From: Octopus sinensis
Lineage: Eukaryota
Reading direction: 5' to 3'
DNA length: 64,000 nucleotides
Assembly: GCF_006345805.1 (NCBI RefSeq)
Contig: NW_021835974.1
Coordinates: forward strand, 6,000-69,999
In this document: piece after piece, positions 5,281 to 43,057 of the stretch
How positions within the stretch are numbered: position 1 is the stretch's first letter
Layout of the letters: the number at the start of each line of letters is the position of its first letter
Notes under the pieces: generated by a model
Seen by the model: only the letters and a program-made list of their open reading frames with translations
Databases searched by the model: none
Told to the model about the DNA's origin: nothing
Translations under genes and position numbers: made by a program

Positions 5281-6328
5281 GGGCAAATATAGAAGAAGCA
5301 TTTTGGAGAAGTAAAGAAGAATGAGAGAGATGAAAGAATCCGCAGAAAGTAAGGAAAGAATGACGGAGGCGGGGTGGAAGGGGTCACATGTAAGAAAAGT
5401 AACAAGACTGACGATTGTTTGGGGTTCGGAGGAAAGAAAATGTGAGTATGGGGGTAGAAATACTTGAAGCTGGGTAAGAGATAAGACAAAGTAGGGGTGA
5501 TGAGTGAGAGCGATAAAGAAATAGAGAAAGAGAAAGAGAAAGAGAAAGAGGGAGTTAAGGAGTCGGGATGAGGGTAACAGTAAAGAATAAGGGGGGGGGG
5601 GAATGGCGGAAAGTGGTTTGGAGTTTGAGAGATAAAGGGGGGAAGAGGAAGAGGAGGTGAAAGGATGAAGTTGATGTCATGAGTTGATTGAAATGTAATC
5701 AGTCTGCCAGTTCGGTCGTCCGTCAAACAGTCACGTCACCCACCGCTATCGCCGCCGCCATCTTCACCTCACGTTGCCAACGTTACCTATATTAAGTCTT
5801 ACGTGCTCAGCCGAATATTCACCATCATCTCCAACACTACCGCCATCTTTCCACCACTGTTATCGTCGCCAATACCACTAGTAACTCCAACCCCCAACAT
5901 TCTCTCTTCTCCTCCTCCACCATCCCTCTCTCTCTCTCTCCCTCTCTCTCTTCCCCCCTTTTCTTTCGCTTTCTCTCGCTGCCCAGTCGTTATGCCGACT
6001 GACTCTCCAATTTCTTTGACACCATGAATAATTTAACAAGAAAGTTAGTTAAGTCTCCACATCTGGATCTTGTTTAGCGATGGAAAAGATGTCAATCTTG
6101 GGCAAGAAAATAAGAGAAAGTTCGGAAAAAGTAAAAGACATGGAGGATGAAAGAAAGGAAGATGGGAGAGAGAGAGAGAGAGAGAGAGAGAGACAAAGAA
6201 GGCAAAGCAAAAAGAGAGGAAAGAAGAAAGAAAGGAAGGAAATGAAAGGAGATACAAAATTAACCCCATTTTCCGAATAATATGCGCATGTCTATATATC
6301 TATGTATGAGTGTGCTTGTACATATGAA

Positions 6329-9598: not shown

Positions 9599-10061
9599 AT
9601 GATAAACGGCTTTACCCTACTTTCACTATCTTGAAAGAGAGAGAAGCGTTCAACCTGATGAGTCGTAAGAATAACGAAACTAGTCAGTACCGATCTTCGT
9701 TCTCAAACACTGAAAGCTCACAGCGCGAGACAAAGACATCTATTAAACAGATAAGATACTTTATATTTAATCATAACCCACGTTCTATAAATACTCTGGC
9801 AACGAATCTACTGTAAGCAGAATTACCAGTCAGCGAATGGTTCTGTAATTCCTTGATAATTTAATTGGATTTGATTCTTATCTGCAATTACTGGCGCTGC
9901 GAGAGTGACGATATATATCATAACGATATAATGATAAGGATTTTGTAAACTGAACGAGGAGTGAGAAATCCGGAAAGTATCAGCAGACTCGGTGTGTAGT
10001 TAACTAATAGATCATAGTTATAGCCTGGTCAGGCGGAGCAGCAATCTGATTCGGTTTTATA

Positions 10062-10755: not shown

Positions 10756-11489
10756 TGTTGTTTTTGTTGTTGTTGTTGTTGTTGTTGCTGTGGTTATTGT
10801 TGTTGCTGTGGTTATTGTTGTTGTTGTTTGTTGCATCAGTAACAATGAAATTACCAAACAGCTGATGATTGCTAAAATTTCACTTAGTTTAACTGCTCCA
10901 CTTGTTTTGTATAATCGTCCTTTAATCATCCGCTTCTCAAGCTTTTTTCTTTTTTTTTTTTTTGATCTCTTCTTTGCTTCTTTCTTGTATTGTTTTGTCA
11001 CTTATTCCATATTATTTGTTGTTTAATTGCGAAGAAGACGAGTAAAGAAAATAATACTTAAACAGTAAAATAAATATTTTACAGCACCAAATTGTACCAA
11101 TAAATTCTGCCATATTCTTCCAACACACCACCGCTACCTGAGTTTAACTTCAGTTTCTGTTGCGTAAAACTGGCCAAAATACAAAGACTGGACATAAGTG
11201 AATCGAGTGAAATAATGAAAGAGCTTCTATGCAGTCGCTCGACTTGCTAGAAATAGCAGCCATATCGCTCTCGAACAATGCTACCTTAAAAAAACGCATT
11301 AGTGTGGTATATGATATACATAGAATGGAGCACAGTTGGAACACGTGTGATCATGGTTCTACTCCATTATGGTTGACCTGGGATTAAATAACAACAAAAT
11401 CTAAAAATTTCGTGCCAATAAGGATTTCTATACGAGATTATTCGACCCGTTACCTTCAACGGATATTTGTCCTCATCTTGTTTGTTGTT

Positions 11490-11535
11490 AACACAACGTT
11501 TCGGCTGATATACCCTCCAGCCTTCTTCAGGTGTC
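11490..11535 (-). ncRNA. Minimal type I hammerhead ribozyme motif (Penelope-like element type)
   Basis: Minus strand reads GACAC-CTGAAGA-A-GGCTG(GAGGGTATAT)CAGCC-GAAAC-GTT-GTGTT. Stems I and II are intact and helix III is reduced to the palindrome AACGTT. Confidence 0.7.
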
Positions 11536-39839: not shown

Positions 39840-41399
39840 TTCATATCTTACAACTACCATCCTCAAAAGATGCACACTTATAGCCATTACTTAGCATTTA
39901 GTGTAAAATTTACTCGTCCTTCATTTGAATCTTACTTACAATGTAAACACGATTTCTTTTGGCTGTTATTCGTTATCTTTTCTTTTTTTTCTTTTTTTGC
40001 AACAGAGAGAAGGCTTCCGGCAATGTATATTTTCTCTTGGTATAATAATTTCTAAAAAAAGAAAAGCATCATATTTCTTTTCCTCCAATTATTTTTGATA
40101 TTTAATTTAATTTTGGCTTCAATATTTAAATGAAGCTGAAATTTAATTAAATGATAAAAATAATTACAGCAAAAGGAATATATTTTTTAAGTATTTTACC
40201 AAAGGGGGAGAAATTAACATTACCGCAAGCCTTGTCTCCCTTGTGTAGAAAAAAACCGAACAGGTTAGAAGATGACGTCACACACACAAATGTGTGTGTA
40301 CGTAAGTGTTGTGGGGGGGGGGGTTGTGCACGCATGTATGTATGCGGGTGTATATATCACATAGGAAAATCAAAAATAAAAACAAAAACAGGAAAAAACA
40401 ACAAAAGTTAAAAGGACCAAACAATGAATGTATTAGATTGGCGCTCAGAAAAAAGTTTAAGACGACAAAAAGAGGGTGTGGTGACGTTCCGAGCATGGAT
40501 CTTCGTGAGAAAGATGAAAGAGGGAAAAACGAGGAGAGAAGGAAAAAAAGCCGCGCGGTCGGAATGAACCTGAAAACTTAGTGTTTGCAAAGTGGTTTTC
40601 TTAACCATACAACCATGCATGCACCTGTGTAGAACAAATGATTTCATTGTTTCTGGACACCGACCTTTTGAAATTTATGCTGTCATTATGTACAATCGTG
40701 CATTCATTATCCGCAACGATAAAAAACAAAACTTGGTGTTAGATATCACACTCCAGAGAAGTTTACAGAAAATATCAATATGGATAATAATACTCTGGGA
40801 AATATCGAATTCACACAGACGAAGGGATTAATTTAAATTGTCGAGATATGATTGTGAAAGCACATCGAGGAAGGAAATGTCTTGTAATTGATATATCAAT
40901 CCCAACAGACAACGATATATCTCTGAAGGAAACGAAGAAACCATCTGACTATAAAGACTGTGAATAGAAATATTCAGAATATGGGAATTGAAGACATTCC
41001 ACATTGTAATAGGTGCCTGGGGGATGGAACGCAAAGAAACGTGGACAAATTTATAATAGAAACACAGTAGAGACAGTGTATAAATAATTAGATAATTAAC
41101 TAATTAGAGTAAAGACACTGTATGAATAATTAATTATTTTGAGCCCAAGGCTAGAAATATGAAGTTCAAGTCGTGGGTGTTTGGATCTTGCAGTATATTA
41201 ACAGAGCTTACTTTATCCACCCGGACGAAAAAAATGTCAAATTGGCTCAGACGTAAATTAAAATTGGAGATATTAAGGGAAAACGAATAAAACAAACTAC
41301 TTGTATGGTTGTAATCATTCACGGCTGCATGAAGATACATACATACATGCATATATATATATATATATATATATAAAGCCTGCCATTTATGATACGTTC

Positions 41400-41448
41400 A
41401 GGCTTGCTGAAGAGTACGTAAGTACGAAATCACAGGTGATACAAGTCT
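41400..41448 (+). ncRNA. Type I hammerhead ribozyme (copy 1)
   Basis: AGGCTTG-CTGAAGA-GTAC(GTAA)GTAC-GAAA-TCAC(AG)GTGA-TA-CAAGTCT: 7-bp stem I, GNRA-capped stem II and AUA triplet (cut after 41441). Confidence 0.85.
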
Positions 41449-41857
41449 ATATTTTTTTAAATGTCTTGCTTTGAAAGATTGCATTCGGTGGGATTAGTAA
41501 AATATTTGGTAGAAATGACTTTTTGTCCCTCTTAGCGTGTGGCATCTATGTATAATAAAGCCCTCTATATATAAATTAACATGTTCAATAAGAAAAAATT
41601 ATTTTCGAAATTTTTCTCTTATGAGGTTTTTCACGCTATCTACCTGATAATTTCTTATTAAGATTCCTTATTAAGAAGTTGTCCTTAATTGCTAAATAAT
41701 TTTATTCCGAAAAAACTTTTCCTATCCGAAATGCAATTCGAAGAAGCTTGCCATTTACCGGATGTAATATATGTAAACTCCCCCATGTGCTTCGTTGACG
41801 TTGAACAGTTAGCTGCTTGGCTTCGACGAGACAGGGTCGTTTATTTATGATACGTTC

Positions 41858-41905
41858 AGGCTGCTGAAGAGTACGTAAGTACGAAATCACAGGTGATACA
41901 AGTCT
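41858..41905 (+). ncRNA. Type I hammerhead ribozyme (copy 2, one T missing in the stem I 5' strand)
   Basis: Same core and stems II/III as copy 1, with the cut after 41898. Confidence 0.78.
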
Positions 41906-42028
41906 ATATTTTTTTTAAATGTCTTGCTTTGAAAGATTGCATTCGGTGGGATTAGTAAAATTTTTGGTAGAAATGACTTTTTGTCCCTCTTAGCGTGTGG
42001 CATCTATGTATAATAATGCCCTCTATAT

Positions 42029-42063
<35 letters not shown>

Positions 42064-42065
<2 letters not shown>

Positions 42066-42449
42066 CAAAAACAATTAAGATTCAAGTGAATTCCAATGAA
42101 TTCAATTGAATATGGTACTTAACTTAGATGCACCAGAATCAATTATGGCATTAACCATAAAATAATGTGGGGTGATTATACCCAAGAAAAAAGCAACAAG
42201 AATGGATTAGTAGTTTAGTACAATTGTTTCATACTAAGAACAATTTTATTTGAAGCTGCAAATATTGCAGCAAATACAAATGTCCAGTATTCATCAGCTA
42301 AATCCCATATATGTTTTCCAGACATCCTAGAGAGTTATGAATACTGGACATTTGTATTTGCTGCAATATTTGCAGCTTCAAATAAAATTGTTCTTAGTAT
42401 GAAACAATTGTACTAAATACTAATCCGTTCTGTTGCTTTTTCTCGTGGG

Positions 42450-42535: not shown

Positions 42536-43057
42536 CACATACATATATACATACATCTTAGGGTTCAGAAAAATTGCTTCATCACATACCGAATTTTAGA
42601 AATAGCAGTTAAATACTATTCTACTACCATAAGATATCTCCCAGACAGCTGTCTGTTGATTGAGTGTTAACCAACACAGACACAAGCGAAATTTTCCGGA
42701 TAAAGAACTGTATTCACACGAATTTAATGAACGTCAATATGTATGTATGTATACATGTTTGTATGTACATATGTATGCATCTACATCTGTTTGTATGTGT
42801 GTATGTATGTATATATGTATATATATATATATATATATATTATGTATGTATGTATGTATGTATGTATGTATGTATGTATGTATGTATGTATGTATGTATG
42901 TTTGTACATGTATCTATGTAAGTATATACTTATATAAGCATTCACCATGATAAATCGCTAGCCACTATACATTCTTTATTTTTTCTCCTTGTTTCTTTCT
43001 GTATTCCCTTCTGTGGAAGAGCGTAGGCTCGAAACGTTAAAGCCTTTTTCACTTATG

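Follow-up and report, generated by a model that had tools for sequence, protein, structure and literature searches.

The window, a 64-kb stretch of octopus DNA, contains a locus that we interpret, with a probability of about 0.7, as a 1.4-unit insertion of a non-coding hammerhead retrozyme, whose RNAs were likely circularised and copied into (TA)n by a Penelope-like reverse transcriptase (RT)/GIY-YIG enzyme at two internal sites. In this family the ends of insertions are set by these two internal sites and not by the ribozyme cut.

The direct repeats 41385-41578 and 41843-42036 are 98% identical, differing by two 1-nt indels and two substitutions. The string CUGAAGA / GUAC-GUAA-GUAC / GAAA-UCAC-AG-GUGA-UA of a type I hammerhead was found in both, with cores at 41407 and 41864, and the predicted cleavage sites, after 41441 and after 41898, are 457 nt apart (Table 1). 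The longest ATG-started frame within 41385-42036 has 39 codons, and the GC content of the 2-kb bin is 34%. The initial annotation had described two ~190-bp direct repeats with hammerhead cores, cuts at this spacing, a non-coding interior and (TA)n on both flanks as a non-autonomous hammerhead-bearing retroelement, and our analysis supports that description. Its further allusion to terminal repeats was not borne out: the ~190-bp repeats are the overlap of a 1.4-unit head-to-tail tandem, and a terminal-repeat or LTR reading was rejected. Aligned to the unit, the locus reads as a 5′-truncated 1.4-mer.

Table 1 Features of the retrozyme locus, in positions of the window.
Feature	Position	Strand	Basis
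Left (TA)n target microsatellite	41351..41375	.	sequence
5′ junction, 14-nt interior piece (= 41744-41757), ATTTA microhomology	41376..41389	+	sequence, unit alignment
Type I hammerhead copy 1; stem II 4 bp + GUAA loop, palindromic stem III, AUA triplet	41400..41448	+	
Complete 457-nt unit between the two cuts; RNA predicted to be released	41442..41898	+	descriptor scan, folding
Site A, first of two fixed 3′ termini in genomic copies; putative reverse-transcription start	41560..41578	+	
120-nt tail between sites A and B	41579..41698	+	conservation, predicted helices
Site B, second of the fixed 3′ termini in genomic copies; putative reverse-transcription start	41684..41698	+	
Type I hammerhead copy 2, 1-nt stem I deletion; predicted cut after 41898	41858..41905	+	
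Last unit, partial, terminating at site A	41899..42036	+	unit comparison
Right (TA)n target microsatellite	42035..42064	.	sequence

The insertion starts at 41376 with 14 nt of unit interior (the correspondence is to the family allele), which are joined to the rest via the 5-nt microhomology. Ninety nucleotides of predicted hairpin are skipped at this junction, which likely reflects a template jump across the hairpin. Target-site duplications are unreadable within (TA)n. Hammerhead copy 1 has a stem I of 7 bp and copy 2 lacks one U from stem I with its core intact; their ribozyme folds have energies of -9.6 and -4.9 kcal/mol, respectively, and for both copies the minimum-energy fold is a different, non-ribozyme fold of lower energy. 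Folded as a circle, the unit 41442-41898 reaches -113.3 kcal/mol (z -4.4), and 0 of 60 shuffles were equally low.

A descriptor scan of both strands of the window found two hammerhead sites of this pattern only, and Rfam gave 0 matches at the gathering score. Minimal hammerhead-like motifs were seen at two other places. The one at 9648-9695 (+), which has its core at 9655, a GUC triplet, a damaged stem II and a stem III built on the palindrome CUAG, is likely a relic of another repeat of Penelope-like element (PLE) type; the one at ~11480-11530 (-) (CUGAAGA...GAAACGUU) belongs to a different repeat. A perfect 81-nt inverted repeat with a 42-nt spacer occupies 42214-42417. Elsewhere in the genome, an unrelated type I hammerhead family with stem III around UCGG and a GUC triplet was noticed in the flanks of G000 C3:13804033, C1:37154953 and C10:19534874.

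The family is large. In the 2.72 Gb of genome searched, a pattern of core plus stem III found 4,307 intact cores, against 0 for its reversed control. The initial annotation had proposed checks of copy number, core conservation and stem covariation; both the repeat and the interior are multi-copy (1,826 and 2,565 genome search candidates, 40 scored for each), and the ribozyme is conserved, with compensatory stem changes between subfamilies. Unit length is 457-495 nt across subfamilies, and head-to-tail arrays reach at least 14 units. CUGANGA was kept in 234 of 262 distinct sites that had been chosen on stem III and the cut motif alone, and all four bases occur at its N7. Six different sequence versions of stem I occur, all of them fully paired and several carrying double changes. 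In an alignment of 8 units double changes affect 24 of 133 consensus pairs, the covariation energy term being small, and the commonest ribozyme variant carries a U-U mismatch at the closing position of stem II. Since the core is conserved and the stems covary, these comparisons place the hammerhead under long-term selection.

The 2-nt loop of helix III had led the initial annotation to suggest that the two copies may cleave as a dimer. Stem III is a palindrome around 1-2 nt, and its self-pairing was calculated at -10 to -11 kcal/mol (-11.2 kcal/mol in the window). A hairpin closed by a loop of 3-4 nt is possible too, which in the window would comprise 4 bp and a CAGG loop; the isolated hairpin is unstable. 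On these energies a ribozyme acting as a dimer is plausible, as reported for axolotl retrozymes in the available part of PMC7229834, and is not required, because the palindrome has both options.

The 3′ ends of genomic copies lie either at site A (41578 and 42036) or at site B (41698), 120 nt apart, and run into (TA)n, whereas 5′ ends are scattered. The same exact junction recurs 300 times for one A end and 14 times for one B end. Truncation at the 5′ end, partial tandems and an inverted 5′ copy are all present among the insertions of the family, and in a sister family (~72% identical over the best-aligned part) the 3′ ends fall at the same two sites. Back-to-back inverted insertions made up 117 rows, of which 17 were dropped at a locus edge, 16 were not resolved by the classifier and 84 were classified. 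Site A was paired with site B in 81 of these 84, partly redundant rows of which two are duplicates; two others were B/B and one A/A (a B end on inspection). Where loci had been chosen for their A end, the partner was B in 41/41 resolved rows, and where they had been chosen for their B end it was A in 10/11; in sets not selected on an end, 30/32 were A/B (p = 2.5e-7). The 120-nt stretch between the sites is well conserved across subfamilies and holds strands of conserved predicted helices. The strict A/B pairing suggests simultaneous copying from two starts by a Penelope-type enzyme, on an RNA that is likely circular, and by its arrangement the A/B footprint corresponds to the Penelope tail, here 120 nt long.

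The autonomous PLEs of this genome leave the same footprint as the retrozyme. One autonomous family with RT and GIY-YIG domains targets (TA)n, has a tail of its own of ~36 nt and has AAATA at both ends; 25 of 30 tail loci, out of 173, end at a microsatellite, and in its inversions the tailed end faces the untailed end in 5 of 5 located. Intact ORFs of 775-781 aa are present (L186, L191), with an RT, a C-terminal GIY-YIG and a Cys-rich linker of Neptune/Nematis type; the label Neptune-type is taken from this linker and not from a tree. A GIY-YIG scan in the search for a helper gave 149 matches, and 150 of 5,029 candidates were scored. The PLE comparison set comprised 80 loci, some of them overlapping, and at least three families with a C-terminal endonuclease were read at their 3′ ends. 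Clear DNA homology between the retrozyme unit and an autonomous PLE was not found among the 80 loci: the best match, 77% over 52 AT-rich nt (E 2e-4), does not fall in register with the ends. PLE coding fragments in retrozyme loci lie away from the arms, none of which is adjoined by a PLE ORF.

This lack of a homologous PLE terminal repeat among the 80 loci speaks for mobilisation by a LINE, such as an R4/Dong-like enzyme that targets microsatellites, or through some other route independent of PLEs, as does a decayed coding remnant near the insertion, at ~40780-41000 (+), which we take to resemble the restriction-like endonuclease end of a non-LTR retrotransposon. A LINE is nonetheless very unlikely to be responsible, as the copies have neither poly(A) nor a single 3′ end, and inversions are bounded on either side by a fixed internal site, as in the PLE footprint of the same genome. 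The insertion ends thus indicate that the retrozyme was very likely moved by PLE enzymes, and the helper is most likely a Neptune-type element. The initial annotation had named a (TA)n-targeting Penelope/Naiad RT; Penelope-like mobilisation and the (TA)n ends stand, but a Naiad helper appears doubtful, because Naiads are reported without canonical hammerheads in the available part of PMC8557442.

Several PLE-associated motifs were observed alongside. An atypical hammerhead-like motif (UUGAUAA...GAAACAUGU) occurs at ~6340-6450 of L186 and in related loci, in an intact, apparently young Neptune-type PLE family, ~70 nt upstream of the first 3′ end. A second PLE family (L197, ~5825-5870) has a minimal hammerhead with a U-U closing pair of stem II, as in the dominant retrozyme subfamily. 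In the window, ~43005-43050 (+) is the terminal motif of an abundant repeat, and a related copy in L061, preceded by decayed PLE-like coding sequence, terminates in (TA)n; from this arrangement the repeat is a candidate for a further helper family.

The arms of the insertions also bear on the RNA template. Of the 148 arms in loci that had been selected on an end, 88 read across a cleavage site and 31 across two or more. An exact start at the cut was seen in 0 of 273 arms, and 5′ ends do not pile up there, the nine rows at position 1 reaching at least 4 nt further upstream. Because arms read through the cut and none start there, cleaved linear monomers are excluded, and the arms identify the templates as circles or uncut multimers. 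Divergence within arrays is as low as 0.06% (13 units) and 0.08% (9 units), and long arrays of intact ribozymes would favour a circular template. Private fixed variants, at 0-2 per array, were too few to be informative. Some arrays have a higher-order structure: the arm of L282 shows a period-4 variant pattern, and an array on contig C3 (G000:C3:82266100-82269500) combines a period-2 pattern with nested shared changes, its seven units being alternately 486 and 459 nt long and every other ribozyme carrying a G8-to-C change that inactivates the core. A monomer circle is insufficient for period-2 and period-4 arrays, which need multimer templates or later DNA duplication; their variant patterns speak against templates that were solely monomer circles.

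Paired arms of one inversion diverge by 1.5% (median 7.4%) and by this divergence come from the same subfamily; with the best arm elsewhere at 1.1%, the comparison does not decide for one common template molecule. None of the sequence records that contain the repeat is listed as RNA. The unit was covered by contigs in 3/3 and 4/4 runs that were guessed to be RNA, and one contig bridges the cut. A repeat unrelated to the unit, at the margin of the second stretch, was covered equally deep, so that contig coverage is no evidence of expression or of circles.

The higher-order periods and nested changes of some arrays are what spread at the DNA level would offer, by unequal crossover or by a rolling-circle DNA transposon, with a minisatellite as the outcome and the hammerhead as a relic. 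This explanation is extremely improbable given the dispersed young insertions, their 5′ truncation, inversions and fixed 3′ ends, and the compensatory changes in the ribozyme; we regard it as largely refuted by the A/B inversions together with ribozyme covariation. A PLE could instead use an uncleaved linear multimeric transcript, the ribozyme trimming ends or acting late and circles being uninvolved. Period-2 and period-4 arrays could then be inherited from parent arrays, weak-looking ribozyme variants predominate in the family, and an anole PLE used uncut RNA in vitro, inserting without a need for cleavage, in the available part of PMC11167929. However, one 6.9-kb arm of 14 units (0.06% divergence, 14 intact cores) needs 14 uncut ribozymes on a linear template, the long-term selection on the core implies that cutting matters, and circles are the main form in mussel according to the accessible part of PMC7229834. 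We consider the linear template unlikely.

Mobilisation by a PLE from likely circular RNA would proceed as follows. Multimers would probably be transcribed by read-through or by Pol II, because the unit contains T runs of 6-8. Self-cleavage after AUA, incomplete and possibly aided by paired palindromic stem III strands, would yield unit or multi-unit RNAs, which a host ligase would close into circles, as reported for mussel and axolotl retrozymes. A Neptune-type element would provide the enzyme. At a nicked (TA)n target both strands would prime cDNA, one at A and the other at B; in vitro, a PLE cut and extended both target strands, and two internal RNA start sites defined the tail, according to the portion of PMC11167929 available. 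Synthesis of cDNA would run in reverse across the cleavage site and could cover as many as 14 units, and the arms would join at their truncation points; where one arm alone was kept, a simple insertion such as that in the window would result. More tentatively, with the odds leaning against it, the retrozyme may be a circular-RNA parasite with a folded docking domain and two starts 120 nt apart, on which a dimeric PLE, one subunit per site, rolls round monomer or multimer circles. If so, retrozyme and helper would have structure and not sequence in common, and the PLE tail would be the spacing of two active sites on a folded RNA.

The element class itself is not new. Two or more successive units that each contain a type I hammerhead, low GC, many copies, and the lack of coding sequence and of true LTRs were all found here, as in metazoan non-LTR retrozymes, and by these features the octopus elements form a new family among the animal non-LTR retrozymes. 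In the available parts of PMC7229834 and bioRxiv 10.64898/2026.07.22.740005, those elements are likewise non-coding AT-rich tandem units with one type I hammerhead per unit, occur as dimers to long arrays in thousands of copies, have a highly paired predicted circle and co-exist with PLEs. The octopus units of 457-495 nt are longer than the 170-400 nt given by Cervera and de la Pena 2020 (PMC7229834) and fall inside the 51-972 of Li, Clavereau and Pollet 2026 (bioRxiv 10.64898/2026.07.22.740005), as far as the accessible text of each goes. In the published retrozymes, as covered by those portions, the link to PLEs consists of co-occurrence and terminal-repeat homology, whereas here it consists of the insertion ends, and no homologous PLE was found. 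Neither this octopus family nor an A/B end rule on a retrozyme was found described in the literature, where supplements may hold either, and Repbase/Dfam the former. Plant LTR retrozymes have a ribozyme-bounded non-coding unit and a circular RNA model as well; they differ in their type III ribozyme, true LTRs, PBS/PPT and 4-bp target duplications (PMC4918200, in part). Identity with them was rejected on the type I topology and the partial tandem seen here.

Chlamys elements such as MRC1 are also ORF-less PLE passengers, multicopy and head-to-tail, once mistaken for LTR elements; unlike the retrozyme, their 3′ sequence is generally common with the autonomous partner, and their clade is reported without canonical hammerheads (PMC8557442, available portion). 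Endonuclease-bearing PLEs, as described in the accessible parts of PMC8557442 and PMC11167929, have 5′ truncation, partial tandems, an inverted 5′ copy, microsatellite targets, a tail at one end only and two internal starts downstream of the hammerhead in common with the octopus family. They differ from it in that the retrozyme has no ORF, a full-size and not a minimal ribozyme, and arrays of 14 or more units. Its 120-nt tail exceeds the 30-40 bp extension, often at one end only, described for PLEs in the available part of PMC8557442, a typical rather than a defining value. Inverted repeats and a 34-bp repeat already feature in the PLE structure of Schostak 2008 (PMC2377424, in part), and the octopus family bears on the origin of this Penelope structure of inverted repeat and tail. 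It bears as well on the copying of retrozymes into animal genomes, which is proposed and not demonstrated in the parts of PMC7229834 and bioRxiv 10.64898/2026.07.22.740005 available. The octopus family makes both questions testable in vitro, since its footprint has been counted, its non-coding substrate is short and conserved in fold, some of its arrays are very young, and the same genome encodes candidate enzymes that are intact.
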